Assembly (NCBI RefSeq): GCF_001949145.1
Contig: NW_019091358.1
Coordinates: 558,961-622,960, forward strand
DNA length: 64,000 nt
Origin: Acanthaster planci
Taxonomy: Eukaryota
Direction: 5' to 3'
Every line of letters starts with the position of its first letter. Position 1 is the first letter of the stretch. The notes under the pieces are model-generated. The model worked only from the letters and a program-made list of their open reading frames with translations. It was not told the DNA's origin and ran no database searches. The position numbers were made by a program, and so were the translations under genes. Of this stretch, positions 3,596 to 63,756 are shown in pieces.

Positions 3596-4196
3596 TTAAT
3601 GTATTGCAAACTTCAGATCACCTTGCTACCGGTATGACACTGGCTGAAATGTCTAACCAGCACCTGAGGAAAAAAAGATGTTTGATTCACTGCTATGATC
3701 AACGCAATGTAACAGAATGGTCCCAGTTCATATTTTTGTTCGGTAACATTCTTGAAACCTTTGGAATCAACCACTGTCATTATATACTGTACATGTGTGT
3801 GATATACGTGATAGCATTTCTGTCAGTGGATGGCTCGACCCGTTGTTGATGTGCACGGTCCTAACCCTAACTTTCAAGGAGTCTCACTTTAAAACCTAAT
3901 GGAAATGATTGTAAATGTACGTGTAGATGGGATATGCCTCCCTGGATCTCATAAAAGCATCAGAAATCTGCCAATGTACACTTAAGGAATTTTGAGGGTT
4001 GGCTCTAATGCAGTGAATTAGAGGGTCATTGCTGTCTTGAGAGGCTTTTAGAGAAAAAAAATGAAAAGGTTCCTAGAGTTTTGTCGGAGTGAAGACCACA
4101 AAGTTTGTGTTCCTTTGCAAATTTCCAACCACTTGGCCACCAACTTTACTTTACCATACCTTCAATCAGTTTCGTTGCTTTATATTTGCCCCACAG

Positions 4197-4343
4197 TCCC
4201 TGCTGTCGACCCACGACAACATCGCCTCCAGGGACCCCACCCAGATGCTTGGGCCCGAAGACCAAGAGGACGACCTTAACTTGGAGATGGTAGAGGAAGA
4301 CTCGGTCAAGATTGTTCGGATTGACAAAACCAACGAACCCCTG
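4197..4343 (+). CDS. MPP5: PALS1 exon: L27C tail and start of PDZ
   Basis: ccacag|TCC...CTG|gtaagg; [10 protein letters not shown]...[13 protein letters not shown]. Confidence 0.92.
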
Positions 4344-34100: not shown

Positions 34101-37100
34101 AGGCTTGAAGACAGGCCAGTGCACCGGTATTATGACATCTGGTCTTTCTTGACGAAATATAAGCAACCACACTGCATGTGAGTACTGGGTAAACTCACCA
34201 AAGAGAACTCATGTTTTCAGAGGCAAGGGAGGTTGGAAGTCCATACCAGGACAAAAGAGCCTAGATTACGGTACATCTAGGGTCCAAATTTCAGGTGAAT
34301 TATACCTTCCTGGCAACACAGATTCAACAAACTTAAAACAGTCTTGAGGTGAAATCACCAATTCTATACACTAGATTCAAGTCATGTAAAAAGTGCTACG
34401 GCGATGGATACCAGCATTTATACATGTAGGTGGTAAACACCCATATTCAAGAGGGCAATTGTACAATTAACACCTTTTTAATGATCCTGTCATTAATCCT
34501 TCACCTGTTCAACCATGAGTATTCTTAGAGGTTTACTTCTATTTTTCTCTGTTTGGGGGTCAGGGAAGTTGGACTTGAACCTACCGTAACTGATCATGAT
34601 TCCCACGATGAAATTGGAGCCAGTTCCAAACANTTTCCAATTCCACCAAAGTGTCATTGATAGCATTAATTGCAATGACATTCCTAATGGTGACAAAGTT
34701 TGGGGTTTTAGACAATGATAATTTTTGAGTAAAACGATTGCAGTTACACCATGCATCAATCTCTTTCTTGAGTATGAGTGGTTCTGAGAAGAACCGGGAA
34801 TACTTTTTATCAAGACAATTCTTGAAGCATACAGCAAGCACTGGACATCTCAGCAAACACTCACATCACTACTCAATGCAGGTGGAGACTACAGCAAAAA
34901 AGACAACTGCATTTGTACATGTGTACATGTACATGTATCTCCACTTAAAATGAAAAAAATTACATTACAATTTCTCCAGCAAGCTCTTGGACAAACACTG
35001 AGCACACAGTGTTATGAATATATAATAACATCTACAGGTACATCAGTGAAGGGCAAACCCTGTTATTAAAAGTTAACATCTCCCTGACGCCACCAACATG
35101 TACATGTACCGGTACAGTGGTTCAGTCATTAAGACATCCTCATCAGTAAGCAGGAGGTTGTGGGTTCAGGTCCAGCCCAAGTAAGCTTGTCAATTATACT
35201 CACTAGCTCTCGGACAAATACTGAGCATGCAGTGTTACAAATACGCGACGGTGAAGCAAGAGGAATTACATGTAATTTGGTCAAAGTGTATTGCCACTTG
35301 TAAAGGCAAGCACACAATGAGGTTTTCCACTATTCCTAAGTCACTACATAGGCCTAAAGTAAATTCTAAATGCAGTGGACATGTACACGTCCATACATGG
35401 AGCTGTACTACCAGGTAGCACTGTACACAAGTACACATGTACATGTAGTTCTGGGGATTACATGTACCGGTATGATGTACCGGGTACATAACGGGAATAA
35501 TTTCTCAACAAAGGAAATGTACATGTAACTGGTGTAATGGTATTCCTGCTGAATTAATTCGGTCAAAAGTCCACACTTTTATCAAGTGCATATAATAAGG
35601 TATGTACTGTCCGTACATGTACATTGTACATACATAAGCCGACTAGCACCCAACATACATGTACCTGTATACATGTATGTACATGTACATTGTACAAATG
35701 TACATGTTCACAAACTGAATCCACATTCGCTAGCATCCACGCAGGGCCATGTTCATGATTGCATTGTTTTCTTACCTCTTACCGGTGGTCTTTTTCTGAA
35801 TCCGCTGACGGGTGAAGGACACTTACATGTATTATACATGTACATAAATGCACTTGTATTGTACATGGACATGTCAAATACGTGTACACTCACCCACATG
35901 TTCATACATTCATATACATGTACAGTACGTACATGTACCGGTATGTACAGTATTCAGGTATTAGTACTAGCACATGTACATCCAGCATAAATGATTGGCC
36001 AAGCTATTATCAGCCACAAAATGGAAACTTTGCAAACTACATGTACATGTACCGTTACGTACGGTGCATGAAATGAAATACAGTATTTAGGAGATATACC
36101 GGTATTCAATAACCCAGGTACCACAGACCACAAATCTTTTACAAATCGAGACTTACATTGTACTTTTTGACAAATGGCTTAAAAAAAATGAATTACAACC
36201 ATTTTGTACACTTCCGTTTCATACCGGAAGGGCAAACCTGTTATATATAAATACCGGTACCTGTTATTATGATTATTATGATCTCACAGTGACTACAATT
36301 AGGCCTGTGCTGGGTACCCGGGTACCCGCCCGTCGATTTCAAAACCCGGTTCCATTTTTCCGGGCCGGGTACCCATAAAAAGTAAATAAATTAGGAACNT
36401 TTTCCAATTCCACCAAAGCGTCATTGATAGCATTAATTGCAATGACATTCCTAATGGTGACAAAGTTTGGGGTTTTAGACAATGATAATTTTTGAGTAAA
36501 ACGATTGCGGTCACACCATGCATCAATCTCTTTCTTGAGTATGAGTGGTTCTGAGAAGAACCGGGAATACTTTTTATCAAGACAATTCTTGAAGCATACA
36601 GCAAGCACTGGACATCTCAGCAAACACTCACATCACTACTCAATGCAGGCGGAGACTACAGCAAAAAAGACAACTGCATTTGTACATGTATACATGTACA
36701 TGTACACTTAAAATGCAAAAATTACAATTTCTCCAGCAAGCTCTTGGACAAACACTGAGCACACAGTGTTATGAATATATAATAACATCTACAGGTACAT
36801 CTGTGAAGAGCAAAACCTGTTATTAAAAGTTAACATCTCCCTGACACCACCAACATGTACATGTACCGGTACAGTGTTTCAGTCATTAAGACATCCTTAC
36901 CAGTAAGCAGGAGGTTGTGGGTTCAGGTCCAGCCCAAGTACGGTAAGCTTGTCAATTATACTCACTAGCTCTCGGACAAATACTGAGCATGCAGTGTTAC
37001 AAATATGCGACGGTGAGGAATTACATGTAATTTGGTCAAAGTGTATTGCCACTTGTAAAGGCAAGCATACAATGAGGTTTTCCAATATTCCTAAGTCACT

Positions 37101-40100
37101 ACATAGGCCTTAAGTAAATTCTGAATGCAGTGGACATTAACACGTCCATACATGGAGCGGTACTACCTGGTAGCACTGTACACAAGTACACATGAACATG
37201 TACGGAATAATTTCTCAACAAATGTAATGTATATGTAACTGGTGTAATGGTATTCCTGCTGAATTAATTCGGTCAAAAGTCCACACTTTTATCAAGTACA
37301 TACATGTATGTACATGTACATTGTACAAATGTACATGTTCACAAACTGAATCCACATACACTAGCATCCACGCAAGGGCATGTTCATGATTGCATTGTTT
37401 TCTTACCTCTTACCGGTGGTCTTTTTCTGAATCCGCTGACGGGTGAAGGACACTTACATGTATTATACATGTACATAAATGCACTTGTATTGTACATGGA
37501 CATGTCAAATACGTGTACACTCACCCACATGTTCATACATTCATATACATGTACAGTACGTACATGTACCGGTATGTACAGTATTCAGGTATTAGTACTA
37601 GTACATGTACATCCAGCATAAATGATTGGCCAAGCTATTATCAGCCACAAAATGGAAACTTTACAAACTACATGTACCGTTATGTACGGTGCATGAAATG
37701 AAATACAGTATTTAGGAGATATACCGGTATTCAATAACCCAGGTACCACAGACCGCAAATCTTTTACAAATCAAGCCTTACATTGTACTTTTTGACAAAT
37801 GGCTTAAAAAAATGAATTACAACCATTTTGTACACTTCCATTTCATACCGGTACCTGTTATTATGATTATGATGATCTCACAGTGATTACAATGATCAAC
37901 CCAAGCAGAAAAGCACTGTGACAAGAATTTCCTGTTGAAAATTGAATTCTGCTTGAAAAAACCACAAAATTCTCTGAATTCTCTCTTGTTGAGGTGTTAC
38001 GTATCTGGCCCCAAACACACTACAAACAAGTACCTGTACCATACAAGAAAATGTGTACATGTACATGAACAGCAACTTAAACAAGACAAACGTATTTCAC
38101 ATTGCTCATTATCTTGAACAGAAGAATTGGAAGTGTGCAGTATGGAAAAAGAAATCTTTAAAAGTCACTGTACATTTCCATGAGATGTCACTAGGTCTGC
38201 ACGGTACCTCCCCTCCCCCATTTCAATATGAAGAATGCATTCAGACATAGTTAAAAACAAAACTCCCTCCACAAAAAAGCCTGACTCATTTGTTCCACGA
38301 ATCCTTGTAAAAGTAGCCGGTCACTTTACAGACAAAGTCTCCAAGGCATCTCCCTAAAAGCAAGAGGTGACTCGATGTACATGTACCATGTACAGAACAT
38401 GACGTTCTCTTCACAGATAGTGGATGGAAATTCCATCTAGCGTCACAGAATGTGAAACATTCTAGCACAGACAACGTGACCTGCCTGCCTGCATGCACGC
38501 CGGCCACAAGATGCACAAAAGCATTCCAGAGACAAGAGGTACACATCCATGTGCTAATGTATGTAAGCTGTGTCTAAAATCCAGGCCACAGGTTGAAGGG
38601 TTTGGGTTCAAGCTGAATGTCCTAAATTTATACACCACCCCCAGAAAAAAAGAGCCAAGGAGAAACATATGTGTATGTTCAATGCACATGTACCAGAATA
38701 AAATTCCTTACTGATATGTACATGTATCAGCGAGAATAGGCAGTTCTTTTAGAACCAACACATAAAATAAACAGGAAATAGGAAGTAATTCTTAATCTTT
38801 TGGTTCCTTTCTCAACAGTGCAAGAAACATGTACCATAATGGTATGAGCCATCATTCAACAAAAAAATTTCAGTACTAAACTAAGGTCTGTGTTTACATG
38901 TACTGTAAGTTCTCACGATACATGGAACTTACACAAGTTTGCATTGTTTTCATTAAAGAACTGTGACAAATAATCTTATGGGATGGGTATCAATATAGGT
39001 GATTCACAATAGTGCGCCTTCAAGCGCTTACAATACGTCAGGCAATCACAACACGCAAAATCTGTCGACCCTTTCTAAAGACGCACCAGGTCGACAGATT
39101 TCACACAATGTGATTGGCCAATGCATTGCAAACTCTTGAACATGCACTATTGTGAAATGCCCGTATTTTTTACAACATTACCGGTCTCATTTGTTTGCCT
39201 ATGAAATAGGCACGTGCAGTGCAGGGTCAGTTGGTCAGCAAAAAGAAAATACAAAGGTTGGTGCATATCTGAAAGGAAAAAAAGGACAGAGCCCAGACTA
39301 CACATTCACAGAGAAATGCCATGACTGTCACTGTGGTACCGTACATGTACAATCTCCCCAATGTATATTTTTAAACTTGAGGACTTAAGGTTCACTTGCT
39401 CTTTAGTAAGTTACAACATCCTCTTGGTTGAAGAGGTATGATTCCAGTTAATATCGGTGGAAATGTAAACGTGTCAACCTGATTTAGCAGTGCATATTAA
39501 TAGGGGCAGGTGATGTGTTGAAAAGTCACATTCCCCATTCGTTTTTGGATATGCAAGTCTCAGGAGGTCCGGTACGGTAACCCAGTACGTACAAGTGTGG
39601 TGAGTAGACTGTGCGTTGAAATTGGCTACTCAACACAGGCTCACTTTTGGGTAGCGTTTCATGTCATTCTCAAACTGGGCCGATTTACATAAATTTATCT
39701 TGCCTTTTTCAAATTAGTATTGTCTTTTTCAGCCAAACTTATCCACCGTGCAGTCATTTTTTATCTTCACGTCAACTGGGCAGTAATTTCTGATAACACA
39801 GAGGCCACTTTTGAAAGAATTCAGGACTTGATAAATGCTTCAACTCATTGTCTTGAGAAGTCAACACGATGACTTGACGGGTACATGTACATGTAGATGT
39901 CTGACATTTATACACCAGTACATGTCCCGGTATGTCCCAGGTTTAGTCAAGATTGACTGTTCACTACTGCGACAGGGTGGTATTACTGCATGTGACAATA
40001 GATTGTCACCAAATGTCTACTTTGGCATAAAATTTTCATGCTGCACGAAAAAACAAACAAAAAACAAGATGCATTTTTCTCTTACACTCTCAAATTTTCT

Positions 40101-43100: not shown

Positions 43101-44648
43101 CCGTACACAGACACGTATGGGAAATTTGACTGATTTTGACTGATATGACAACTGCATCAAGAATGCATCTTAGCACAGGTGGGTTAAAGGTCTAAATCCA
43201 ACCTCATTTAAAACATTTCATCACATGATGTACAATAAAAAGGTTAACAGTGGAACAAGATTAGGCCCAAGACTAATCCACGTGCAAATTTCTCAATCAC
43301 TGGCTCACTGCATACATGTACGTATCTACACGTATCTGTTCATTGCTGTGCCATTAGTTTGCCAACTGGAGACCAGTCATGCCAGTTCACAGCCCATTGA
43401 GGCCTACATGTACGGCCCAGACAATAAACAATGATCTGGCCCTAATATTTGGCACTTACCATGCTAAGTGATGATCTGGCCATTGTAATGGTATGCCACT
43501 ACCACAGCAGAGGACACAATTCCACCATGTCAAGTTGGCTTAGGCCCTATGAATGATGTAGCCTAGGTCCTAGCTAGGCCTACCATGCCTACCTGCCGGA
43601 CATGTAGCCTACCAGTAGCCTACCGGACATGCCTACCGGCATGTCCGGTAGGCTACTGGTCATGCTGGTTGTGACTTTTAGGATGTTTCAATCTCTAGCG
43701 AGCTAGTGGGCCAATCATGCTCATGAGTCATGATGATTCTTCATATTTTCAATGGGCATTACTTAAAAACCAATTTAAACCATTACACACTAACTAAAAA
43801 ACACAACCTGCCCCTACGCTAGGGGGTTCATTACCTTTAGCACCCCGTTCCTATTAGGGCCTATAACTTGGAACAAATTCTACTTTTTCGAAGTACGTGT
43901 AACTTATCTGAACAAGTTGTTGGTGATGTCCTCTTACATATCAGAAAGAAAAGAGAACAGGGCTTTTGGTTTTTGAGGGAAATGTTTGGGTAAAACGGCA
44001 GCGTACATGACCACCCCGAAGGTAGCTGTGAACGACAAATAAATGAATGTAGTCTGGTGCCTTGACCTGGATGGAGATTTGCTTTGATGAATCCGAAAAG
44101 CCCAAGTCGGGTAACCGGACGAAAAACAAAATGGTGTAATTCGACTGAGTGGTTGTCTTTTGCCAAACTCGTGTTAGAAATTTGAAGTTTTCTTCCTTAA
44201 ATATTGTCAAAATCTACCTAAACTACGCCTAGGCCCTAGCCTAGTATCAGGATTCAGTAATGGTTCCTTAAGGTCAAAATGTTATTTAGTTTGAGAAAGT
44301 GAACTTTGTTTCCTTATTATAGGAACAGGGTGCTAATTGTAACGAACCACAAGAGTAGCATGACTGGGCCGTGGGCGTGCTTGCTGGGCAGTCACAACTC
44401 ACCTTCCGCACACCTTTGTACGGGTAAAAATACAGTTCTCGGCCCACATTGAAACAGATCTTGTCATTACAACCGGATCCATCTTCCACGCTGGTAAATG
44501 ACACCCTGACGGGATGGCAGCACTGGACGTTGTATGGAGCTCTTGACGGCCAGGAATATTCGGACAGCGTCATCAGTTTATATGTGCCCTCGCGAGTCCC
44601 AAACTGGGTTTTGACTTCGTCCCTTCCACCCCCTTCCGAAGCCGCCAT
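28073..44648 (-). CDS. WDR20: WD repeat-containing protein 20 (USP12/USP46 deubiquitinase cofactor; DMWD family), complete, 543 aa. Exons 44648-44403, 31911-31726, 30264-29101, 28108-28073.
   Basis: Four phase-0 exons with canonical splice sites. Motifs match vertebrate WDR20: EVKTQFGTREG, ICFNVGRELYFYPYKGVRK|AADL, LLVGFSAGQVQLIDP, SQDGFLRVF, MKSYFGGL, GGEDDLVTVWS, YRFGSVGQDT, KKIAQERLTAL, and C-terminal GGTVV. Confidence 0.97.
28223..28512 (+). mobile_element. tRNA-derived SINE in the last WDR20 intron
   Basis: A box TGGCGTAGTGG, B box GGTTTGAATCCC, central GGGTTTTCCTCCCAC typical of V/Meta-type SINE cores, AT-rich tail. Confidence 0.75.
29101..30264 (-). CDS. WDR20: WDR20 coding exon 3 (WD40 core)
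   Basis: ctgcag|AGG...GTG|gtgagt; 388 codons within the 411-aa ORF 29038-30273. Confidence 0.97.
30695..31240 (+). mobile_element. piggyBac-like MITE family A, copy 2 (WDR20 intron 2)
   Basis: ataa|CCACTTGCTGCC ... GGCAGGAAATGG|ttaa; collinear with copy 1. Confidence 0.85.
31353..31412 (+). repeat. Short dispersed repeat, second copy at about 58972-59034
   Basis: Both sites share atagggtgtatgtaaaa(a)tc.tattgaaatcg.aggatt.g.gact. Confidence 0.7.
31726..31911 (-). CDS. WDR20: WDR20 coding exon 2
   Basis: ttttcag|GCT...GAG|gtatgt; AADLTKPLDKRTYKG...SKIYNEE. Confidence 0.95.
32745..33054. mobile_element. CpG-rich MITE with nested inverted repeats; left end TA|CAGTG (Tc1/mariner-like)
   Basis: ctatgggacagagcggacatccggga pairs with tcccggatgtccgcactgccccatag; outer gtac..ttctgg pairs with ccagaaagtac. 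Confidence 0.65.
34634..37893. repeat. Direct duplication of about 1.5-1.7 kb (34634-36299 and 36401-37893), probably two haplotypes assembled in tandem
   Basis: Near-identical copies, each starting just after a single N (34633, 36399). Confidence 0.85.
38996..39165. mobile_element. Palindromic TA-flanked MITE
   Basis: Outer ttcacaatagtgc/gcactattgtgaa and inner aaatctgtcgacc/ggtcgacagattt inverted repeats. Confidence 0.7.
42303..42504. mobile_element. MITE of about 200 bp
   Basis: TIR aaagagttccatata / tatatggaactcttt. Confidence 0.55.
43611..43660. repeat. Perfect 23-bp inverted repeat with a 4-nt loop
   Basis: ACCAGTAGCCTACCGGACATGCC tacc GGCATGTCCGGTAGGCTACTGGT. Confidence 0.95.
44403..44648 (-). 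CDS. WDR20: WDR20 coding exon 1
   Basis: ATG at 44648 in the context aaaATGGCGGC; MAASEGGG...YKGVRK|gtgagt; 82 codons. Confidence 0.95.
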
Positions 44649-45060
44649 TTTGGGAAAGTCACAAATTTCCCGGATGTGTATCCCACGATCGAAGCAGCGG
44701 CGGACGAGATTTGATCCATACAAAGGGCCACTAATTTACCACTATCTAATCGTCTAAAATCATGCTGTGGACGACACGGCTAACAACAATCATCGTATGT
44801 GTGTTCAAGGTCAAAATTCATTGAAAACGATTGCAAAATTAACACTTTTAGTAGCGGTTCATTGCGAGCTTTCGGTCTCCAGCTAGCGAACTCCATCGAG
44901 AGAAGCTTGCTGGGCGGTGACCTCTAGTAGGTGACCTTTGAACCACGTGCTTAACCAGGAAGTAGTATGGTGCTGCCGACGGTTACATTGCAGACGTGCA
45001 TCGATGGTGCTTTCGTGCAGTGCCCGCCAACTTCAAGTTCTCACGCGCATTGGTCATGTT
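44640..45060. promoter_or_regulatory. CpG-rich, probably bidirectional promoter region at the WDR20 5' end; YY1-type motif GCCGCCATTTTG overlaps the WDR20 start codon
   Basis: CpG is visibly enriched relative to the flanking introns; GCCGCCATTTTG at 44641-44652; a divergent gene lies downstream on +. Confidence 0.55.
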
Positions 45061-46730: not shown

Positions 46731-47695
46731 TGTAATAGGGATGTCGGCTTCGATTACTGTCTTACATGTCTCTATGTGCTTTGTCTTCATGTGTGTCTCT
46801 CGTCTGTTTGTCTTTCTGTAGGCTGGAGAAGAAAAGCAGTTGCTTTACTCCAGATCCAGATGTTGTCAGTAGTATAATGTTCAGTTTATATTGACTGTCA
46901 ATATATCTCTATACATTGTACATGATATGTCACCGTGACTGTATCATTGTATATTACCCTTGATGAACTGTGGCAGCATTGAAATAAATGTAAAATAATG
47001 GAAACGTAAAAACTTTTTTTAAAAGTTGTGGCTGTATAAAAAATTGAAAGTACACGTAGCATGCTCTTGTAATAGAGGCAGGATTTGTTTTGGTTTTTTT
47101 TACACAGCTATTGACAGTCTCATGTTTATGGGTAATTCCAGAAATTAGGGGTCCAAAGTGTGACATTTTTGTGTCCCTGTTATAACTGACCTTTATTATT
47201 TGACATGGAAATATCACCAGAATTGATTTCAATCTATTACTATTTGTTTGGCAAGTAATATGCATTAATTCATCACTCTTGGAAATTAAATTTAAAAATG
47301 TGTTCTGAACTTACAAAATCATATCAGATGTGACAGGGGCACAAAAAAATGGACCCCAGATTTTTGGAATTTCCCATATTTAAGGCAAAACTGCTTTGTA
47401 GGAGTGTACTTGAAAGCAGTTTGAAGTTTCTAAAAGTATGTTTACAATTATACACAGTGTTAACATCTCAGAAGCAAGTTTGGAAATGCAAGGCAGTATA
47501 TTTTCCATCCATACTTTATGGAACAATCAATGTTTATACCATTCCCTAAAGTGCAGCTCTGTGAAAGGACCTCACCAGTCTTGATAACACAAACTCTGTT
47601 TTCTTACTTATTTGGTCCATAGATGCCAACAACCATAGGTTGAATACTTTGGACTGTCAGTAGTCGGCTATTTGCCGCTGTGAAGTATCCAGCAG

Positions 47696-47866
47696 ATGAA
47701 TGAGACGATGCTCGAGACTTTAGTTTCTCAGAGAAGTGCAGAGTGGCAGGAGCTGAGGCAACGAGTTCAGCTGACGGCCTCCAAGTTCGGGGATGCTGTC
47801 GGTGTGGGACAAGGAAGACCATATGACTTCTTTTTGTCCCTGCTCTCGGACGACGCCTGCTCTCAG
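47696..47866 (+). CDS. YqaJ-like nuclease exon (QRS-EW...LTAS motif)
   Basis: MNETMLETLVSQRSAEWQELRQRVQLTASKFGDAVG...SQ|gtaggt; the true start may lie further upstream. Confidence 0.85.
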
Positions 47867-50800
47867 GTAGGTGGTGGGTAAGTGGCAGTGTCTGCATCCC
47901 TGGGAGACCTCTTGTCTAAGTATTCTGTCTGCCCTGGTGCTAGTTTCTTGGAATTGGCTTATTACTCTTGACTTGCACACTGTACTTTGCTCATTTTTTG
48001 CTTAGCACCAGTTTCTCTATGAATTCAGAGCCTGTGTGAACAACACATTTTCCCTTACCTCAACTTCACTACGCCCCTGACCCTTCCACGTGTTCTCCTC
48101 CAACTCGTCCCATTTATGCCATTATCTCTCTTCCTCGCCCAGTTTCCCTTATCCTCTGCTTTCTTTACAGTACGTAAAGCTCCTTTCACATGCAATACAT
48201 ATGACTCCAGTGTCTGGTCTTGTAATAATCAATTCTGTTAGCTTTCAGAGTTGCTCACAACTGCACAGTGTGTCATCACTGTGGACTGTGGACCTTAATC
48301 CCTTGATGACGGGAACTTTTTTCTGAAAGCCGACTCTGAGAAGTCCAGTCTCGCTTAGCCACGAAGGCCACCTGCCAAACTGCAAATTCTCGGTTTGTGG
48401 CCCTGCGTGCTCTGCATGCTTTGAATTAACACAGTGAAAATGCTCATTGTTCGGTGGCTTTCGGCTCTACTCACGCTTCCACATTCCTGTAGCCTCTTTT
48501 CAAAGTGGGGACTATTGTGAAGCTGGTGATTATGATGCAAATTCGGTCTTTTCATTTCTGGGCAACACACAAAGGCCAATCACCATATATACAAGAGCCA
48601 GGGTCTGCCTTCTTTCACCGTGTTCGCTCGAGCGTGGGCCGAGAATAATAGCTGAAAAGCGGGCTGAGGATCTCAATTTTTACGGCGGCTTTTACCGTCA
48701 TCCCTCGCGAAGGGGTTAATTCTATGGACCTCACTTATCTGGACCGTGCAAAGGACCTCACTTCTCGTGGCATTCTATGTTTGTTCCCTTCCAGGAAAAT
48801 AAAGAAAGCGAGTACACAAAACATGGAAGACGTATGGAGCCAATCATAGACGAGGCATATCAGCTCCTGACCGGGAACGAGACACATGCAGCTGGCTTCT
48901 GGCAGCCACAAGAGGGCAGCATACTGCACAGCCTCTGTGGTGCCACACCTGATGGCAAAGTATGTGTAATTGTTTGAATGCTTTTTTTGGTGTTTAGTGT
49001 TACAGTTGCTGCTGGAAACAACATGGCATCATTGGGAGCCAGTGTCTCTATTGGTAGCCACTCCCCAAAGAAGGATGATGTTGCTTTAAGCAAAAGCTAA
49101 ACGATTTGTTCACGGCTGCTCACTTAAAATTTAATATGGATTTCGATTGATATACATGTAAGGCTAAACTCATATCAATATCCATGTAAAAGTCAATACA
49201 AAGTGTATTTAACATGCGCAGACATCAAGGACGAATCCAGATTTATCAAAATACGGGAATACAATAAATATGCAAGGTTATGGCTACCGGTGTCCCTTTG
49301 TCTTCCTGTATAGCCTAGATTTGCCAGTGGCAAATATATGAACAGGACCTTAGGACCTTTGGACAAGTCAGAGAAGATGCCATAACTGCAGTGGTACTGC
49401 ACGGACATGCATGTGATATGCATTTGGCAATTCACGACACCCTATTGGTGGAAGAGGCATGTAACGGGCTCGTACCACCTGTCCACAGGCATTTTACCAC
49501 CACATTAATAGTTTCAAATGGCTTCTGATTCTTATTGCCAAATTGCGCTAGGGTATATTTACATTTCCATGGAAAAGCATGTACACTTGATAACAAGGCT
49601 TGCAAGACCATACAGAAAGGAGCCTTCAATGTGATGTTATAACCATTGAGGACATAGTGGTCACTGCAGCCTGGCCCGTCTGTTGTATGCTTGATTTATC
49701 TTCCCACAAATTTAATATTTTACAACTTTTTAACCGGACATGTGGTGACATCAGGCCTTCGAGGAGCTCACCTAGTATTAAACTGAATTCTACATGGCAC
49801 ATACTTTCAAAATGGGGGCACATCTTTAGAAAAAGGGGTAACAAGCCCTTTATCTTCTTGAACTTATAACATCCAACAAATTCAGGAGTTGGACATGAAT
49901 TAAGTTGGGAATGTTTGAGCAGCCTTTGGTCGAGTGTCAGTCATATGACTATATGTAAGTAGAGCTCTTGTGAATCAATTAAACCATCACATTTGTCCCA
50001 ATTTTTGATAACTCCTTACCAGATTTTGTCAGCCAGCGAGCCCAAGAAGCTCATAGGGCTAGTCGAATACAAAGCCCCATTCTTCCAGTTGTATGACTGC
50101 TCCAAGCATCCCCACGGCATCCCTAGACACTACATGGCTCAGGTCAGCGCTAATTCAGTAAAACCCAATCATTAGGGCTGAGTTAATTGGAATAATGCAC
50201 AATTCAAATGTTCAACCTTCAATTCGATCAAATACCTGCATATTCAGTCGTACTGACTGGCGGATCATTGATGAACAATCCACATGCAAAATCAGTTGCA
50301 ATAACGCACACACTTGTACATTATGATCACTATAATAGCTTCTCGATTCTAGGATTATCTCCAGTCACGATTTAAAGACATTTTATAGAGGAACAATACT
50401 TCTTGCCCTGTTGGCATTTTATTCCTTTTAAGTTTTTCATTCCTTTTAAGTCTTTTAATGAATAATTTACTTTTTTAATCATTGTAGGATATATTATTCT
50501 GTCGCTTTTCAATTTAATCTGCCTGAAACAAACCTCCATAGTTCGGTTTTTCTCATTTAAAACAACAGAAATTCTCCCTTTTTATGAAGTTTGCATTCAA
50601 ATATTCAAATTCAGAAAATAACATTCGAATATTTGATAATGGATCAAATAATTGGATATTCAGCACAGCCCTACCAACTGTTGTTTTCTTTCCTTTCCCG
50701 AGTTATATTGCAAGCTTGTACTTATAAATCCTGGTTGGCAAAATTCATCAGTTCGTGCCCTTGCAAAAGGACAGTAGACAACTTCCAAACTGAGGAAGTA

Positions 50801-53168
50801 CTTACAGTGTGACATTCTCCCTGTGTACTTCGTGCGGGAACTGTAGGTAATTCTCACCTTACTCCAGAGTCAACGAAGAACAAATTGCCTTTGTGCAGTA
50901 GTTTGAATGTACATGTATGTGACACACAAAGTGCTCCACCAATTTTCAACTGAATGTGCACAAACTGGCAGCAGCTGTTTACCACCTGAAATTAAGAGTC
51001 AAGTTCCCTGTTGAGCAAGGGCTTAAAAGCATTCCAGACTCGAACATTTGTCTAAATTTGCACTTACCTGGATTTCATATCATTTTGAAAGGGAGCTTTG
51101 AAAAGCACATTGTCACATTGATTACTTTTAGGTTTGCTTGATGGATGTAACCATGGAGATAGGAACACTGTCAAGGTTTGCAGTTGCACCGTGTAAGTTG
51201 TCTTTCGGTAGTGAGTGGGGTTCTCAAGTGAACCAGAATACTCAACGTTTTCTGTTACCTGACAACAGATGCGGCATACTTTCCAAAACATTGAGTATGC
51301 CGGTTCCCTTTGGAAGCCCATCGGTTCATAAGCATTTCGCATGGTGCTACTGCTGTGCAAACCTTTGACAGGGGTTAGATTTGTCTGGATTTGGGTATTT
51401 TTGTGTAAAGCATATTGAGGATGGTTTTTTTAGATATAAAAATTAATGATTACAGTGAAGATATGCAATTGACTAAGGCCTAACATATCCATGGAAATTT
51501 TGATTGGTTTGAAAACAAGTGGAAAAATAGAAGGGAAAGGAGAAGACTACATTACCATGATTTAACGGAAATATCGACAAGCAAGGATATTATGGGGACG
51601 TTTGGTGCGATAAATCATTGAAATATTCTGACTGAGTATTGCACACTGTGTCCTCAAATCTCGCGACTGCCTTGTCAAAAAATGTCACATTGTGTTTTTT
51701 TTTACATTAGATCCAGGGCCAGATGGCTATCTGTGAGGCTCCGTGGTGTGATTTTATGGCGGTGTCTACCCAGACCAGCGAAGTCAGTCTCCAAAGGGTC
51801 CACTTCAGCAGGGCCTACTGGCAGTGCGTGGCCAAGAAGCTCAGGCAATTCAGCCTGACGCTCAAGGAGGCCAAACAGAGGAAGGAGCTGGGAAAACCGT
51901 TTCTCAACTTTCCTGGTCAGGACAGCTTTTGTGGCACCCCTGTGTCTTGTCTTGAGCATGGGAATAGATCTTTTTCATAAGGAAGCCATTTCTGATCATG
52001 TTCCCTGTAAATATGTTATTCAGTGGAATGTATCAAATTGGGTGGTGCCCGATTATTTTCGGTTCCATGCCTCTTTTTCATTTTTTTTTTATGTTGCTCG
52101 AGACATTTAGATATAACCAATCACATTTTAAATTATTCACCACTGTAAATTAAATTAATGTGAAATAAATATTTTCATTGCTTTCATTTTTTTGTTGGGT
52201 TCCCAAAATATAAAGTTAACCTTGCTTTCAATTTCATACGGCTGACTTGTGTATAACGTCAATTGATTCAGTGTCGAACCGCACATAAACAGTGCTCTGT
52301 ATACATGTATGTAGGCATTGTACATTGGACGAGTATCAACCAAAAGGTGGAGTTTTTTTGGCAAAACTGTCTACCTGATCTCTTGGCATCCTTTGGGGAA
52401 ACCCTCCTAATGCTATCAAAATTTAACACCACAAAGAACTACTTTTTCATTAAAAAAATCACAGCATTCACAAGAGCATTTGAGCTTGAAAAAGCATAGC
52501 ATCTTTCCACCAGCATGAGATAATGTGAGCTAGTAGGAATTCCTTTTATCATGTCGTTAATCTCATTTGAACCAACAGGCATACAGAGATTGAAGAATGA
52601 ACCTATTGCAAGAACCTTACTGCCGGGGGAAAATAGCATCACGGTAGAGAATCTTTTAGAGGTAAATTTGACCATATGTGTATGCCAGAAAAGTGTGTCA
52701 GACACACTGGTTATTGATAACCACTCACCAGGCAATAATCTGTAAAATTTCACAGGCTCTCAAACTGAAAACAGGAAAAGGGACTCTTTTTTTCTACATG
52801 TCGTGAATTTTGGTTTACTCTCGTGACTTTATCTGTGTATTCAATTTACTGTAACAGTTTAAGGATCCTACATCCACCATGCAGAATCACTCACCTTGAT
52901 GTAATAGATTTCTTGAGTAATGATATTTAGTTAGATTTTGGTTCTTGCAAAGTGTTTTAGACATCTGAATTTGTTTTGGTTGTGCTAGGTCAACAGCAAG
53001 GGTCAGTTTCGATCTTCGTCAGGAACGTGGATGGATTTTGATTTCCTCATGGGGAATCCAGTCCCGGGTACCAGCCATCTACAGGGGTACCAGTACGATT
53101 GTATCCTGAGAGAAATAGACAGTGCAATTCGGAAGCGGAACATTCCAGACTTGGAAGCTGTCAAATAG
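47696..53168 (+). CDS. YqaJ-like viral recombinase / lambda-exonuclease-family PD-(D/E)xK nuclease, spliced gene of about 307 aa. Exons 47696-47866, 48795-48959, 50023-50142, 51711-51915, 52579-52661, 52989-53168.
   Basis: The exons join in frame via GT-AG introns (phases 0,0,0,1,0), 924 nt with no internal stop. Family motifs appear in the correct order: QRSAEW..R...LTASKFG, HG...E, GATPDG, LVEYKAP, HYMAQ|IQGQM, WCDF, RVHFSRAYW. Confidence 0.85.
48299..48715. mobile_element. Possible TTAA-flanked MITE in an intron of the YqaJ-like gene
   Basis: ttaa|TCCCTT..GATGACGG ... CCGTCATC..AAGGGG|ttaa imperfect TIR. Confidence 0.45.
48795..48959 (+). CDS. YqaJ-like nuclease exon (HG..E and PD motifs)
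   Basis: cccttccag|GAA...AAA|gtatgt; TKHGRRMEPIIDEAYQLLTG...GF...LCGATPDGK. Confidence 0.88.
50023..50142 (+). CDS. YqaJ-like nuclease exon (ExK motif)
   Basis: ccttaccag|ATT...CAG|gtcagc; LIGLVEYKAPF...IPRHYMAQ. Confidence 0.88.
51711..51915 (+). CDS. YqaJ-like nuclease exon (QxQM, WCDF, YW)
   Basis: tttttacattag|ATC...CCT G|gtcagg; IQGQMAICEAPWCDFMAV...RVHFSRAYW; read-through would stop at 51980. Confidence 0.85.
52579..52661 (+). CDS. YqaJ-like nuclease, probable C-terminal extension exon
   Basis: caacag|GC ATA...GAG|gtaaat; the phase-1 start matches the 51915 donor; GIQRLKNEPIARTLLPGENSITVENLLE. Confidence 0.6.
52989..53168 (+). CDS. YqaJ-like nuclease, probable terminal exon
   Basis: ttggttgtgctag|GTC...TAG; 59 open codons, VNSKGQF...WMDFDFLMG...DLEAVK*; phase 0. 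Confidence 0.6.
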   Translation, partial: VNSKGQFRSSSGTWMDFDFLMGNPVPGTSHLQGYQYDCILREIDSAIRKRNIPDLEAVK

Positions 53169-57745: not shown

Positions 57746-58040
57746 CTATGGCGGCATCCGAATCTGTTGTCTAGAGCTAGGTGTAGGTCTTCGCTCCATA
57801 GGAAATGTGTGGAGACGCGTAGACAATAGATCTAGCCGTAGCTCTGGAAGCCCGTTTTGGACACGGTCTATATGTTCCATAAATAGATATACTTGCCCTT
57901 TTCCGCATCGGTATTCCCAGGCACCAAAGAAACACAAAACAAGCCAGACAGCTAGAAAGCCGCATGCAATGATTGTTGTAGCGTATCCAAATCCAAGACA
58001 ATCCGTCAGCCAACTGGCCAACATCGGGCCGACCATCATT
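57746..58040 (-). CDS. SLC18B1: SLC18B1-like exon with the last TM helices (3' boundary uncertain: stop at 57746, or a donor near 57893-57897)
   Basis: cttgatag|A ATG; MMVGPMLASWLTDCLGFGYATTIIACGFLAVWLVLCFFGAWEY. Confidence 0.75.
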
Positions 58041-61000
58041 CTATCAAGACAATTCAAATCAAATCACTTTACTGTTATCACAACACTTCTGTAGTCATTC
58101 CTTCCCAATTTATATTTTCCTTGCTCAGCAAAATTCTAAAGCACGTGGGTATTGAAAATGCTTTAGTTTGCCGTCAGGTTGTTTCCGTCATGCTTTCAAA
58201 AGCGTGAGATTATAGTGTTACATCCACAATTCAACCACGGTGCCTCTTTAATTTTACAGACACCCCCAAGTCGGCTTTCATGCACTCTTGATTCACATTA
58301 AAGTGAGATTGAGAAGTTTTCCGAAGAAATTCCTCAAAATATTAAGACGTGGTTCGCAACCCCCCTCCCCGAAATTTCAGAAAAGTGATATATCGCTCAG
58401 TCACCTCTTAAAATAAGTTAACCAACCCATTTCCCACTACCGTTAGACAGCTACAGGCGGTATTGCTGCTAGAACTGCACCGACAGCAAATACACGGGCA
58501 CTACCCTAGTAGTTGCCACGTCGCGTGGCAAGAGTTTAAAAAAATGACTGCCAGCAGTTCCATTTTACCCACAACACTTACCCTATTGACACTGCCATGT
58601 TCCAAAGACCCGAAATAATACCGACGAGTCCCATGTTATAAGGTATTCCATACCATCTGTGCAGTGAGGGGTAAAGTTAAATTTAGCTTTTAAAATATTG
58701 GTCTTAAGTAGTGGTTACGTTTATTTAAAAAGATGGTGATTTTGGTAGATGGATCAATACTTAATCTAGAATTTCTGAGGCCTTTCTGCGTCTAAAGAAC
58801 CGGAAACCTAAGAAGTGGCTTGGAGAATTGACTTCAAGGCAGAGATTTCTTAAAGATTTCTTAAAGCAAGCCGAAAACAAAGACCTAACCAACCAAAATA
58901 TTGTTTTAAAAAATACTTGATTTGAGACTATAGACCCCCTCGCGCGAAGTTATTCCAGCTGTGGTCACTTGAACCGTAACCCCTTCTCATAGGGTGTATG
59001 TAAAAATCATATTGAAATCGGAGGATTCGGGACTTAAAGTTAAAAGCAAGATAAAAAAGTTGTCATTTCCAAAGAGGCTATTGGCGTTTGCTGCGATCAG
59101 TCCACTGTACTCGTGTGTCTGCACGGCACGACAATGTGTTCGTTTTCTTCAAGGTTTGAGTTTGTCTGCAAAGTGGTCGTTTATGAACAACGATGGATTG
59201 TCGGATCGAGAACCTGATATGTCCCCTTTGCAATTTACTTGAAAATTGAGAGCCGTTGGTGTCTATAATTGTATTGCATGATTGTTGTTTGTGCCTTTAT
59301 TCAACCATGCAACGTGAGAAGACCTACTCAGCTGAGATGATCATGTCCAGCATCGGTGGTATGGTCATCATCGCCATCGCGAAAGCCAGAAAGGGTATGA
59401 CCAAACCCACTAAGACCCTGGTGCTGTCGAAATAAACATGCAATTGGACTTATTGAACATCGAGGCTTAGTGCTTAGAAATCAGGCCATTCTTTCGTTTT
59501 GACACTGTTTGCTAGACCAGCAGGGCTGCCCCGAGAGATCAGTGATGAATGGCTAAAAATGGTAAGGGCACGTGGATCATTAATAGTTTTGACTTGTTTA
59601 AAATAATAACAAAATTTAGCCTATGATCGTGATGACTATCGCCTAACGTATAGGCTACCTCTTTTTGAGTTATCGAGGAATCGGCGTGTTTTGTTCTCAA
59701 CTTTGACTAACAAACTATTATAGTTTATTGCTAGGGATATGTACTTACGGGGTTATGTTGAGGACAGGAGAAGGTCCAAGAAGGAAAAATCCGATGACCG
59801 CTCCAAATGTTCCCAAAGATATTACAGTTCTGGTGCACTTCTGTAAACGAATAGGAAATAGCTATAAGTTAACAAAGACGCACTTATTCTGAAATTTAGT
59901 TTCCTTTAACAATCATATTTAGCTTTACACTAAAAGAACCTCTTGGAAGCAAAAGACCGCTGGAAGTTTAAAAATCTCTCTCTCTCTCTCAATGTAGAAC
60001 TGCAGTACAAAGAAACGATCGAGTTTTATAGCTTAGAAAACATTTTAATCATAGCAATTCTGTTTCATAACTCTTTGCTAGATACATTCAAAGTTGGTGT
60101 GATGTTTCCTTACGGATGCCTTGCCATTCAGTATATGATAAGCTTGAGTAGGCTCTATTTAGCTTTCGAATGAGAGAAGGGAAAAACAGGAAAATTTTTT
60201 TTAATGTACATCACATTAAACTATTGTTGCAACGCAAGAATCTGTGCGACCCCGTTTGACCTATTATGAATGATAATTTCCGGCGTTCTGTTAGGCTTAG
60301 TTTACTTTGTTGTACGATTACATAGGCTTAATTTGAAGAAGTTTCAAGAAACCTAGAGTAAAGCGATTTCCGAAAAAAACAAACGAGAAGCTATAGGCCT
60401 ATGAACCTCGACTGCAATGAACGTGAGCAGGATTGGTAGCACGGGACTTTGAATTTTGAGGTATACGTCCAGACTTCAGAAACTAATGCAGGTCCCGTGA
60501 TGGCGACTCCTTTGTGGATCGATTGAAGAAAGTTCGGCCTAATTGAGGAAGGCTTCAGAGCTCAGTCTTATCCCAGAAGAGACACTTTTCTGAACTGAGT
60601 CTACAGTTCAATGTTATGGGTTGCCTATTCACTATTATTTACGCGACAGGAGTCAGATTGCGTCCATCGTTGTCTCGTCTGTTTCTGGCTGTTCGTTGGA
60701 GATATATTCGGCCCGCGTCTCAGCGTATTTGCACCTTCAAAGAACGGTTTGCGTCATCCACGAAGTCGTCCTTTGTTGCAGAGCCTGCCTAAGTCCTCGC
60801 CCAAACGATTCTATTTATATTGCATAAGATCTTGTGGGCCTACTTAAACACCAGCCTAATCTAATCAATATGCACTGCATAATACTCCATCGACACTCTT
60901 GAAGTGTCTAACATTCCAATAAATCATTGTTTCTTTGTTCTTTATATAACAGTGTGATTTGGTTTGATTGCTTAGTTGCATCTGAGAAAATTCGGGCTTT

Positions 61001-63756
61001 TTGAGTAATTCACAATTACTGATAGTTTGGAGATTTGTCAGATCAAACACCATTCCCTCCTGACCACTGGAAATTCTTAACGCGTAATAAACACTGACAT
61101 TGAAGGCAAGCCCTGGGAAGCGTCGACTGTTCTTACAGGGACGGAGTTTTATACCTTTTTGTCCACAACGTATCCCCAAACGACTGTACCCACAGCGTAC
61201 GAAACGCCTAAACAGCAGAAAAGCAAACTTCTTCCGAGAACCGAGAAATCAAGCTGTCGAGAAAGAGGTAAAATGAAGGCAAAATTATTAACCAAAACAC
61301 TTCTCCTTTTCAGCACAGGTAAAACACGCATGGTAAAATCAATTGTATGTTTTGCAAGTGACCATAGCTATGGACGTATTCCCTCTGACCAGAAAGAAGC
61401 AACTTCTGACTGCAAAGAAAAATGTGGGAACAAAACCAACTTGTCGTATGGACCACACGAAAAGACAGCAAGAAAAGTACAAAGCGCCCCTTCGTGCAAT
61501 GTGCGCATTTCATTTCGTTTATTTCCCGGTATTTGTGCATTTTAATATTTTTGAAATAGGCCGTTCTCGTATTTAAAGGGCAGCTGCAATCAATTTGTTT
61601 TAATACAGATCTTCAAATTGCACTTTTTTTGTCTTTTCTGTCTCAGGTAAACCCGCTGTTCAATATTTCAATGGGTAGTTTACTGCCTTTTTGGTTGTTA
61701 CGTAATGGGCATAATTATTTCCATAACCATGAGCAAACCAGTGATGTCATTCTAGGAAGAAATGTTGAAATGCTACGTTGGTTTATTGGTTCGTACACAA
61801 AAAAGTCCGACATTTTTGTAGGTTTGCTGGACTAGTTGTTTTTTCTATGCTGATTCATCGTTTTTTATGTGCATAAGTAAGCATCAATCCCTCAGAAATG
61901 TTTTCATTAAAAATATCTGGATTTACAATCTGAACAGAAAAATCTTTGCACTGAACTATTTCTTCCCTGGATCACATCACAACAACAGCGCTCTCGCATC
62001 TCCAGGGAAGCGTGAACAATTTTATACAGAAGTGCAGTTTTCAAAGCACTAAAATTGTGTCCAAGAAAAAATTCATGGCAGCTAACGCTGAAACATAACA
62101 TAGGTATGGGGTACTCCAACTCCCCCCAGCAAACAGGCCTTATCAAGCGAGAACAAACAAAACAGTGTAGGTGAAGTCCAGGTTTCGTGCGACACTTGCA
62201 TTTTTCGTTACCATGGCAACATACCGTCTCGAGATGAACTGACAGTATCGGATGTAATGCCGTGAAACCGATGAAATTGGCACAGATCGCCAACATGCAC
62301 ACCCAGACAGCCGGTATTTTCAAGACTTGGACAATGGGCCCGGATTGTTTCTCCTCGCTCCCTGTTTTCAACAAAACCACAATATACAAATGTTTGATTT
62401 CTTTCTGACGAGTTCACCAGCCGGTGAAAGGCAGGCCAAGCAGTCGACTCCTACAAGGTATCCGCAGAATCAATTGTAGGGCCCTTGTTGAACCGTACAC
62501 AGTCTCACTTTTGATAAGAAAATTAATACACACACACATATATATATATATATATAATAGTAGAGAAAAACATCATTGCAAACGATATCTTACCATGATC
62601 GGGCATGAAGAAACAGCTCGCACCGACCGTGGCCAAAACTGCTCCTCCCAGAACAAAGAATGGAACCCTGAATCCACCTGCCTATTAAGAAGCAAGCAGG
62701 GTCCAGTGGATGAAGATATGTAGTGGACAACTGATGTGCATTTAACTTGGGAATGCGTTTTGTGCAACTTTTACTCCAGAATGCAAGAAACCTTACGTCT
62801 GTTTGGGTTTACCTAAATAAGAAGTGCACCCTTAGACATTTTATAATTTCTCATGCTTTTTTATGATGAATGGGGGCGCTGTTGCTGTGATGTCATGACA
62901 AGAACAAACAGTTTTCCTGTTGAAGACTTTCTTCACTTATTTTGGACCATTTGGGGAAAACTCTGCTTGCTAGCCTACTCTCACGAACCAAAACTTAAAA
63001 AAGAGAAACTAATGAAGCAATAAAGCAAAATTTGCAACAGCCTTACATCCAAAAGTCTGATGGTGCAGAACTAGCTGTATCCCTGATGTTTGTGCCTTTG
63101 ACTTTATCACACTTTTGATCATGAACATGGTAATCGCATTAGCATTAAAACAAAAAGGCCCTAAAATAAAAATTGGAAAGCTACGACGGGACACAAAGGA
63201 GAATTAATATGATGTGCGAAAAATGTAACTCAACAGGTTTTGTCCAGTTTTGTACACGATTGTAAGACAAGAGCAGGCTGTGTCTACGACGGCACAGGAT
63301 AGAACATGTACTTTATTGGTACAAGGGCGGATCCAGACCCAGATGGGTTTGGGGGGCAGAGGAATAACGAAAGGCCTTAGTAAAAATTAAAGGACAAGGC
63401 AAAGGGTTATTATTTCGCCCAGAAATAATTTCCTGAACAAAATGGCTCTGTCCGTACAAAACAACATCCACTCAATATCTTCACTCTGATTAATAAAGAA
63501 ATCCTCATCATTTTGGGGGGGGGGTGGCCCCTGGTTGCCCCCCCCCCCGCATTGAATTGGTAGGAAAAGTGGGTCAATGTCATATGCAGTCTGACCCCAC
63601 TGACAGCGCTGTTGAGAAATTGTGGACTGTTAAAGAGGTTATATGAAGCTTAGGCATGCAAACTGTCTTGCAGCATATTTTACTTACTTCAAAGAGCAAA
63701 CCACCAGCGGCTGGTCCGACTGCAAACGCTACGCCAGCACAGGTTTCAAACAAACT
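57746..63756 (-). CDS. SLC18B1: SLC18B1-like MFS (vesicular polyamine/amine transporter family) gene, 3' part. Exons 63756-63688, 62681-62594, 62361-62225, 61253-61155, 59840-59749, 59423-59328, 58656-58582 and 58040 onward (3' end uncertain). 5' exons lie beyond the window.
   Basis: Exons join in frame (phases 0,1,0,0,2,2,2) and give a series of TM helices with SLC18B1-like motifs: SLFETCAGVAFAVGPAAGGLLFE|AGGFRVPFFVLG, LHPILSVHLE, WGYVVDK, FLLGPSPVL, IPPMLDM, GIISGLWN..VSIG.MVGP. The family is often expanded in invertebrates, so one-to-one orthology is not established. Confidence 0.85.
58582..58656 (-). CDS. SLC18B1: SLC18B1-like exon
   Basis: tgcacag|A...GG|gtaagt; WYGIPYNMGLVGIISGLWNMAVSIG. 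Confidence 0.85.
59328..59423 (-). CDS. SLC18B1: SLC18B1-like exon
   Basis: ttcgacag|C...GA|gtaggt; TRVLVGLVIPFLAFAMAMMTIPPMLDMIISA. Confidence 0.82.
   Translation of the reverse strand, partial: HQGLSGFGHTLSGFRDGDDDHTTDAGHDHLS
59749..59840 (-). CDS. SLC18B1: SLC18B1-like exon
   Basis: tttacag|AAG...CC|gtaagt; KCTRTVISLGTFGAVIGFFLLGPSPVLNIT. Confidence 0.85.
61155..61253 (-). CDS. SLC18B1: SLC18B1-like exon
   Basis: tctcgacag|CTT...AAG|gtataa; LLFCCLGVSYAVGTVVWGYVVDKK. Confidence 0.85.
62225..62361 (-). CDS. SLC18B1: SLC18B1-like exon
   Basis: aaacag|GG...ACG|gtatgt; VLKIPAVWVCMLAICANFIGFTALHPILSVHLET. Confidence 0.85.
62594..62681 (-). CDS. SLC18B1: SLC18B1-like exon
   Basis: cttaatag|GCA...CAT G|gtaaga; AGGFRVPFFVLGGAVLATVGASCFFMPDH. 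Confidence 0.85.
63688..63756 (-). CDS. SLC18B1: SLC18B1-like exon
   Basis: cctgtag|AGT...GAA|gtaagt; SLFETCAGVAFAVGPAAGGLLFE. Confidence 0.85.

Follow-up and report, generated by a model that had tools for sequence, protein, structure and literature searches.

A spliced YqaJ/lambda-exonuclease-family gene in the starfish Acanthaster planci and a candidate host nuclease subfamily of animals and choanoflagellates

Why does a starfish genome carry a gene for a nuclease of the YqaJ/lambda-exonuclease family, and does that gene serve its host or a mobile element? The question is raised by a 64,000-nucleotide stretch of the Acanthaster planci genome (contig NW_019091358.1, positions 558,961 to 622,960; hereafter the window, in whose numbering all positions are given), where a sequence-only reading had proposed a catalytically intact, long-resident host gene with five introns at 47696..53168. 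Our analysis indicates that this gene, LOC110981169, is very probably a real, conserved and transcribed gene of the starfish, and that, as judged from its sequence, it belongs to a known nuclease family as a cellular variant bearing its own C-terminal extension. An ancient choanozoan host nuclease is the best reading of this locus.

The gene consists of six exons whose GT-AG introns have compatible phases (0, 0, 0, 1 and 0) and which splice into 924 nucleotides (nt) encoding a stop-free protein of 307 amino acids plus the stop codon; the other two frames of the spliced exons contain 14 and 11 stops. When exon 4 was used as the query of a database search, the match was isoform X1 of LOC110981169 in RefSeq (307 amino acids), to which the spliced product is 100% identical. 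It is annotated as 'uncharacterized'; a match to an already characterised animal gene would have told against the sequence-only reading. The homologue of Patiria is 82% identical across 97% of the length of the protein. A homology-scored splice search, run independently, ranked the same five junctions best, and the coordinates, GT-AG ends and motifs are all as first claimed. The parts of the gene are as follows.

47696..47866, forward strand: coding exon 1, residues 1-57, with W17 (47744-47746), R21 (47756-47758), the T-A-S motif (27-29) and a Gly/basic loop
48795..48959, forward strand: coding exon 2, residues 58-112, with E72 (48837-48839) and P109-D110 (D110 at 48951-48953)
50023..50142, forward strand: coding exon 3, residues 113-152, with E127 (50065-50067), K129 (50071-50073), Y149 and Q152; missing from isoform X2
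51711..51915, forward strand: coding exon 4, residues 153-220, the end of the nuclease core and a long helix (186-211)
52579..52661, forward strand: coding exon 5, residues 221-248, where the family-specific C-terminal extension begins
52989..53168, forward strand: coding exon 6, residues 249-307 and the stop codon, with the conserved W-x-x-[FY]-[DE]-x-L-x-G motif of the extension
within 47867..52988, forward strand: five GT-AG introns of 928, 1063, 1568, 663 and 327 nt, after codons 57, 112, 152, 220 (phase 1) and 248

Evidence for transcription comes from raw RNA reads of four runs in three studies, of which 18-24% of each run was read; 15 of 26 read joints and 40 of 155 variants were listed. 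Reads cross junction 47866/48795 in all four runs (13, 2, 8 and 3 reads; 26 in total), junction 50142/51711 also in all four (4, 3, 1 and 5; 13 in total), junction 48959/50023 in two of the four (0, 0, 2 and 5; 7 in total) and junction 52661/52989 in one of the four (2 reads, with one differing letter). Thus, the predicted spliced transcripts are borne out at four of the five junctions. Junction 51915/52579 has no reads among the joints listed, and its support therefore comes from the RefSeq model and homology. The RNA depth on the exons is about 1-5, indicating that the gene is transcribed at a low level. An artefact or a chance chain of open reading frames (ORFs) was rejected. RefSeq also holds an isoform X2 that skips exon 3 in frame and loses E127 and K129, and which would be a catalytically dead form; the exon-3-skipping joint was not seen among the RNA joints listed. 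Since the start codon lies directly behind an AG and in-frame stops lie upstream of it, 5' untranslated exons are likely.

The assignment of the protein to the YqaJ/lambda-exonuclease family holds by both profile and fold. The protein matches the Pfam family YqaJ (PF09588) at 62.9 bits against a cut-off of 22, over residues 16-161 and 148 of the 150 profile positions, and exon 2 alone matches the family at E 5e-4. An AlphaFold2 model of the protein (predicted local distance difference test score 91, predicted template modelling score 0.88) finds LHK-Exo as its best solved fold match (Z 19.6, root-mean-square deviation 2.9, 184 residues aligned), followed by lambda exonuclease (Z 17.2, root-mean-square deviation 3.5, 197 aligned), mimivirus R354 (Z 15.9, the alignment reaching residue 235) and a Haemophilus phage-related exonuclease (Z 14.3). 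Cas4, herpesvirus alkaline nuclease, RecE, EXO5, MGME1 and DXO all match at Z 12 or below (EXO5 9.3, MGME1 8.9, DXO 5.8), and the ranking was the same in a second fold search. Orthology to EXO5, MGME1 or DXO was considered and rejected, given such distant similarity and an identity of 8-12%. By sequence, the closest solved protein is mimivirus R354 (E 2e-5), and several giant-virus models are among the top viral fold matches. A complex prediction with three copies of the protein gave a score of 0.00 and a mark of 0.42.

The profile alignment to lambda exonuclease places W17 on W24, R21 on R28, E72 on E85, P109-D110 on P118-D119, E127 on E129, K129 on K131, Y149 on Y154 and Q152 on Q157. The PD and ExK catalytic residues that had been noticed in the sequence are therefore at the lambda positions D119, E129 and K131. 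Moreover, all 19 named animals and all five choanoflagellates examined have E72, P109, D110, E127, K129, Y149 and Q152 unchanged. The 5'-phosphate pocket, formed in lambda exonuclease by R28, W24 and the TAS motif, is kept in the starfish protein as W17, R21, T27 and S29; its tryptophan is present in 17 and its arginine in 16 of the 19 animals, and both in 5/5 choanoflagellates, the exceptions including a Corticium model that differs and a Mactra model that is without the region. In lambda exonuclease R28 binds the 5'-phosphate, K131A is inactive, L78 forms a wedge, R45 tracks the groove and a role is given to E85, according to PMC11611040.

Homologues carry the case for an old gene. The named ones come from 25 animal species, namely 4 echinoderms, 2 hemichordates, 18 molluscs (one as a fragment) and the sponge Corticium, and from five choanoflagellate species, names having been looked up for 30 proteins only. 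The animal homologues are 39-82% identical to the starfish protein where scored, and each named species has one locus name among the database matches. In a profile search of 1.84 billion representatives, 39 proteins reached E <=1e-30, while 8528 were returned at E 0.001. The searches that yielded named homologues gave no match from vertebrates, arthropods, nematodes, cnidarians, amphioxus or sea urchins, although the named search was insensitive and missed 13 of 17 cluster representatives among its own query members. Humans are not known to have a YqaJ protein. Pattern matches in viral contigs (0 of 111) and in prokaryote genome contigs (0 of 50) were not confirmed as relatives, with patterns tuned to the animal family, and phage matches are only 24-29% identical.

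Many of these homologues have in common an extension of about 95 residues past residue 205 that includes the W-x-x-[FY]-[DE]-x-L-x-G motif. A profile of residues 210-275 built from 22 animal-type sequences and run on 228 proteins matched Codosiga (E 3e-5), Salpingoeca punica (5e-5) and Corticium (8e-4), and S. macrocollata only at 0.21; among these 228 proteins it did not match Hartaetosiga or Choanoeca, nor any distant protein below E 0.5. The long residence in the host proposed by the sequence-only reading is supported by this distribution across animals and choanoflagellates and by the signature of purifying selection. Among 17 related loci from metagenome contigs, the median ratio of nonsynonymous to synonymous substitution rates (dN/dS) is 0.13 (0.08-0.24; 133 of 136 pairs, kept where dS lay between 0.05 and 2), well away from the value near 1 that had been named as telling against a host gene. 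In the starfish itself, five of six coding variants in the RNA reads, among the 40 of 155 variants listed, are synonymous (p 0.002 when compared with all changes and 0.018 with transitions). These results support the view that the gene evolves under purifying selection.

Phylogenetic trees agree with this picture in their shallow parts and are less firm in their deep ones. In a tree of 128 core rows, in which no row was dropped by the rule of less than 60% core cover, the animals, the choanoflagellates and some unnamed proteins form a 69-row group (Shimodaira-Hasegawa-like approximate likelihood ratio test 98), outside which are the phage, giant-virus-like, protist and presumed transposon-type rows. 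A 66-row tree puts the named animals on one side of a branch in 92% of bootstraps; a 41-row animal and choanoflagellate group is supported only at 72/91 in the same tree, and the presumed transposon-type matches form a separate group at 99/99. A forced clade of the starfish protein with three such proteins, whose transposon label was inferred from a co-hit to Viral_alk_exo and a butterfly source, is not rejected by the approximately unbiased test (p-AU 0.26). The tree of 27 named full-length proteins separates animals from choanoflagellates at 98/95 and recovers Acanthaster with Patiria (100/99), the hemichordates (100/99), and the cephalopods, limpets and scallops (100/100). The sponge Corticium is placed with Ambulacraria and not with the molluscs at 100/100, and bilaterian monophyly has a p-AU of 0.065.

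The introns tell a different story from the one first read into them. The sequence-only reading had taken the five introns as a mark of long residence; however, none of the five starfish positions could be mapped in 33 other animal-like genomic loci, whose introns lie elsewhere (unbroken alignments across the five positions in 23, 26, 22, 11 and 11 loci, respectively, with L049, whose donor lies near codon 60, left out of the first count; 27 of the 33 loci come largely from a few related lineages). Thus, the antiquity of the gene follows from the distribution of its homologues and not from the five introns. Thirteen loci, L002 and 12 others, have one coding intron after codon 204, and L044, L046, L049, L057, L058 and L060 have parts of a set near codons 60, 97 (phase 1), 134, 154 and 204. 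Further limits were read indirectly, from ORFs running into introns. For example, an Asterias-like ORF fragment (P0228) has the same limits, 112 and 152, as starfish exon 3, Amphiura-like fragments have 57 and 152 in common with the starfish gene but not 112, and two Corticium isoforms part at precisely the phase-1 site of codon 220. Further fragments point to 84, 101, 110 and 143 as approximate positions, and the pairs 57/60, in an indel-prone loop, and 152/154 are close to each other. P0010 was rejected as proof of an intronless starfish gene, as it resembles a frame-shifted transcript. There are at least two largely exclusive intron sets in the family. Such a pattern would be expected if the gene had arrived with few introns and gained others separately, or if it had been duplicated early and the copies then lost reciprocally. 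As a further reading, an ancestor rich in introns may have lost many of them differentially. Intron gain has been described after transfer in a fungal amylase (PMC3584928) and in domesticated transposon genes (PMC3369469).

The neighbourhood of the gene is that of a host gene rather than of an intact element. The window contains one copy of the nuclease gene, and among 91 ORFs of at least 70 amino acids in 38-64 kb there was no Pfam match to a transposase, although short exons could be missed; the only matches among these ORFs were YqaJ and a sub-threshold ZSWIM3_N match (E 0.0095) at 39.8 kb, inside the WDR20 gene. There are seven inverted pairs of 19-23 nt in 43-60 kb, of which those with one arm on either side of the gene are 19 nt long and 84% alike, and self-BLAST found no repeat starting in 43-58 kb. 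The absence of a transposase and of enclosing terminal inverted repeats noted by the sequence-only reading is thus upheld, and an intact transposon at this locus was rejected. The window flanks match none of 34 animal-like loci at E 1e-4, these loci of 1-7.5 kb being too short for synteny. Upstream, the gene lies head-to-head with WDR20, and between the two, at 44501-45000, is a CpG-rich stretch (CpG observed/expected 1.02, against 0.52 for the window) that, from its composition and place, is likely a promoter region shared by both. The features around and within the gene are these.

44400..44651, reverse strand: first coding exon of the WDR20 orthologue (E 4e-29 to the human protein), which is divergent from the nuclease gene
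29038-30279 and 31576-31977, reverse strand: further WDR20 exons; a downstream exon matches at E 5e-138
48360..48702, strand not assigned: multi-copy transcribed repeat in intron 1, non-coding, with an RNA depth of 60-137 against the exon depth of 1-5, many variants and loose ends

Other features of the window are recorded here in their own right. A second multi-copy repeat, probably palindromic and resembling a miniature inverted-repeat transposable element, lies upstream of exon 1 at 47127-47345 (RNA depth 11-40, opposite-strand joints, loose ends), and the first WDR20 intron contains a perfect 23-nt inverted repeat with a 4-nt loop at 43611-43660. Exons of a guanylate-kinase-domain, MAGUK-like gene are found on the forward strand at 8918-10135 and 4077-4382 (Pfam Guanylate_kin, E 5e-21). 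Downstream of the nuclease gene, 57746-58063 and 61907-62413 on the reverse strand hold hydrophobic, exon-like ORFs with the look of a membrane transporter and no Pfam match. Within 34493-37621 there are pairs of ORFs (34493/36299 and 35553/37268) whose members lie about 1.7-1.8 kb from each other and translate almost identically, and single N letters stand at 34633 and 36399; this arrangement may be a tandem duplication or an assembly artefact.

What would such a protein do in a starfish? By analogy with lambda exonuclease, it is probably an active, 5'-phosphate-dependent 5'-3' DNA exonuclease. R21, with W17 and the T-A-S motif, would hold the terminal 5'-phosphate; two metal ions, bound by D110 and E127 together with K129 and E72, would carry the scissile phosphate; and mononucleotides would be released to leave a 3' single-stranded tail. 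More weakly, we suggest that the C-terminal extension (about 205-300) may replace a phage partner surface or an oligomer contact, that the 3' tails may feed host annealing or recombination, and that the enzyme may act in the nucleus or cytosol, because the nuclease domain starts within the first residues and leaves no room for a signal or transit peptide. The whole reading, that of a host YqaJ/lambda-exonuclease subfamily of animals and choanoflagellates whose Mg-dependent 5'-3' exonuclease has an accessory part in repair or recombination, trimming the ends of DNA, is one that we hold tentatively, at a little under an even chance.

Several observations weigh against this reading. The lambda wedge Leu78 corresponds to T65 and the lambda Arg45 to Q39 in the sequence-profile alignment, in a loop that is Gly/basic and that has R or K at 39 in most homologues. 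The same 91 ORFs in 38-64 kb include no Pfam match to an annealase, with the same caveat that short exons could be missed. The dN/dS pairs behind the low median are non-independent, show a high dS (median 1.0) and were drawn from an animal lineage other than that of the starfish. The distribution of the homologues is patchy, the Ptychodera gene model is short, and exon 1 (663-840) of the otherwise intact homologue locus L057 contains a stop codon, which could mean a pseudogene, an allele or an assembly error; together with isoform X2, these points show the gene to be dispensable or regulated, and a defence role would fit this no less than a repair role. In addition, mimivirus R354 is a dimeric, dual exo- and endonuclease, for which a defence role has been proposed (PMC6137704), so that fold and residues do not fix the polarity or the mode of action.

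The same enzyme could accordingly serve as a defence nuclease that destroys linear foreign DNA, such as DNA viruses, transposon intermediates or engulfed DNA, from free 5'-phosphorylated ends and takes no part in chromosome repair. Besides the patchy occurrence, the possibly broken allele of L057 and the proposed role of R354, its closest solved sequence relative, such a role would suit the hosts found, which are aquatic phagotrophs and invertebrates, and the lack of an annealase partner among the ORFs close by. However, one locus name per named species gives no sign of expansions of the immune-gene type, dN/dS is low, and transcription is low in all four runs from a gene that lies beside a housekeeping gene; we consider this role unlikely, if still worth serious thought. 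Rather less probable, in our view, is a re-purposed fold that acts as a structure-specific endonuclease, as a single-strand DNA nuclease like MGME1, EXO5 or Cas4, or as a 5'-end RNA nuclease like DXO or herpesvirus SOX. Those enzymes have the same fold (Z 5.8-11.8), R354 has endonuclease activity (PMC6137704), the wedge residue is not clearly kept and the fold search barely covered the extension beyond residue 250; nevertheless, at Z 17-20 the exonucleases of double-stranded DNA are clearly the better fold matches, and conservation of the lambda-type 5'-phosphate pocket reaches from choanoflagellates to starfish.

The remaining explanation concerns origin rather than activity, and holds that the gene is now, or was recently, cargo of a transposon or virus (the ISL2EU second ORF, KolobokE or an endogenous DNA virus), inserted and intronised separately in several lineages instead of being inherited from a single event. 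YqaJ domains do ride in ISL2EU and KolobokE transposons (PMC4482050, PMC9587614), and such a history would account for intron sets that differ between lineages, for the position of Corticium with Ambulacraria together with the low p-AU of bilaterian monophyly, and for the forced transposon-type clade that was not rejected. Yet neither a transposase nor terminal repeats were found near the gene, the shallow branches track host kinship, and the extension profile finds choanoflagellate members and none of the distant proteins. The viral and prokaryote contigs, searched with patterns tuned to the animal family, hold no close relative either, and the phage matches are distant. We regard cargo as quite improbable, and the ancient host nuclease remains our preferred reading.

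How might that host nuclease have arisen? We speculate, with considerable doubt, that a phage- or giant-virus-type 'Red-alpha' exonuclease was captured and inherited by animals and choanoflagellates, that it entered intron-poor, gained its C-terminal extension, split early into sponge/ambulacrarian and mollusc/worm types that were intronised independently and lost reciprocally, and that it still serves an unrecognised end-resection or anti-viral pathway, perhaps with Rad52, which was lost in vertebrates, flies and nematodes. Rad52 and Red-beta are kin. If the starfish protein is active, it would be a DNA end-processing nuclease that stands apart from the repair and immunity pathways established in yeast, flies and mammals, even though choanoflagellates, starfish and molluscs have all retained it. 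The ancestral toolkit of animals would then have included a resection enzyme of viral type. The system is tractable, as a single-domain protein of 307 amino acids with predictable catalytic mutants, in choanoflagellates and sea stars that are open to gene knockout. With intron sets that do not match, the gene also lends itself to a compact study of how introns are gained after what may have been an intronless arrival. That the gene is predicted and labelled with its domain in RefSeq and UniRef, and that YqaJ domains occur in eukaryotes, is already known. We found no published description of the gene or the subfamily in a search whose scope did not extend to supplementary gene-family tables and most subscription papers; four animal locus identifiers occur in no main text searched, and, judged by title, none of the 40 papers listed out of 117 that contain the word YqaJ concerns an animal host gene.

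Stand-alone YqaJ genes are also present in plants, and in protists such as Hondaea (P0098) and the source of locus L029 they are single-domain and cellular like the starfish gene. The L029 gene (5959-6831) lies among PP2A-B56 and synaptobrevin genes on a gene-dense contig of 30% GC and belongs to the protist-type group that includes Hondaea. These protist genes differ from the starfish gene in that they are only about 33% identical over the core, have no match to the extension profile and form a separate group at 97/96. The YqaJ family is listed for Eukaryota in PMC3424549. EXO5, MGME1, the nuclease domain of DNA2 and DXO are likewise cellular PD-(D/E)xK nucleases; they work at the ends of nucleic acids and have broadly the same fold, but the starfish gene is an orthologue of none of them, and EXO5, MGME1 and DXO match only at the low Z scores and identities given above. 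The YqaJ domains of the ISL2EU second ORF and of KolobokE belong to the same Pfam family and occur in animal genomes (PMC4482050, PMC9587614, PMC7826175), the clam domains being treated as endogenous viral elements in the last of these papers; they differ in being multi-copy and associated with a DDE transposase and terminal repeats, neither of which is seen at the starfish locus. Giant-virus YqaJ nucleases (NCVOG1192), which are covered in PMC3493329 and bioRxiv 10.64898/2026.07.28.741200, include in mimivirus R354 the best solved sequence match; however, they are about 20-25% identical to the starfish protein, R354 is longer, dimeric and both an exo- and an endonuclease (PMC6137704), and giant-virus-like loci fall outside the animal and choanoflagellate group in both core trees. 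The closest likeness in fold is to lambda exonuclease (Red-alpha) and LHK-Exo, which have in common with the starfish protein PF09588, a fold similarity of Z 17-20, the PD-ExK residues and the equivalents of E85, the W24/R28 pocket, Y154 and Q157. In contrast to these phage enzymes, to which it is 18-22% identical, and to the two-gene Red/RecET module, the starfish nuclease is encoded by a spliced, cellular gene, does not clearly keep the Leu78 wedge, carries an extension of about 95 residues and has WDR20, rather than an annealase gene among the 38-64 kb ORFs, as its upstream neighbour.

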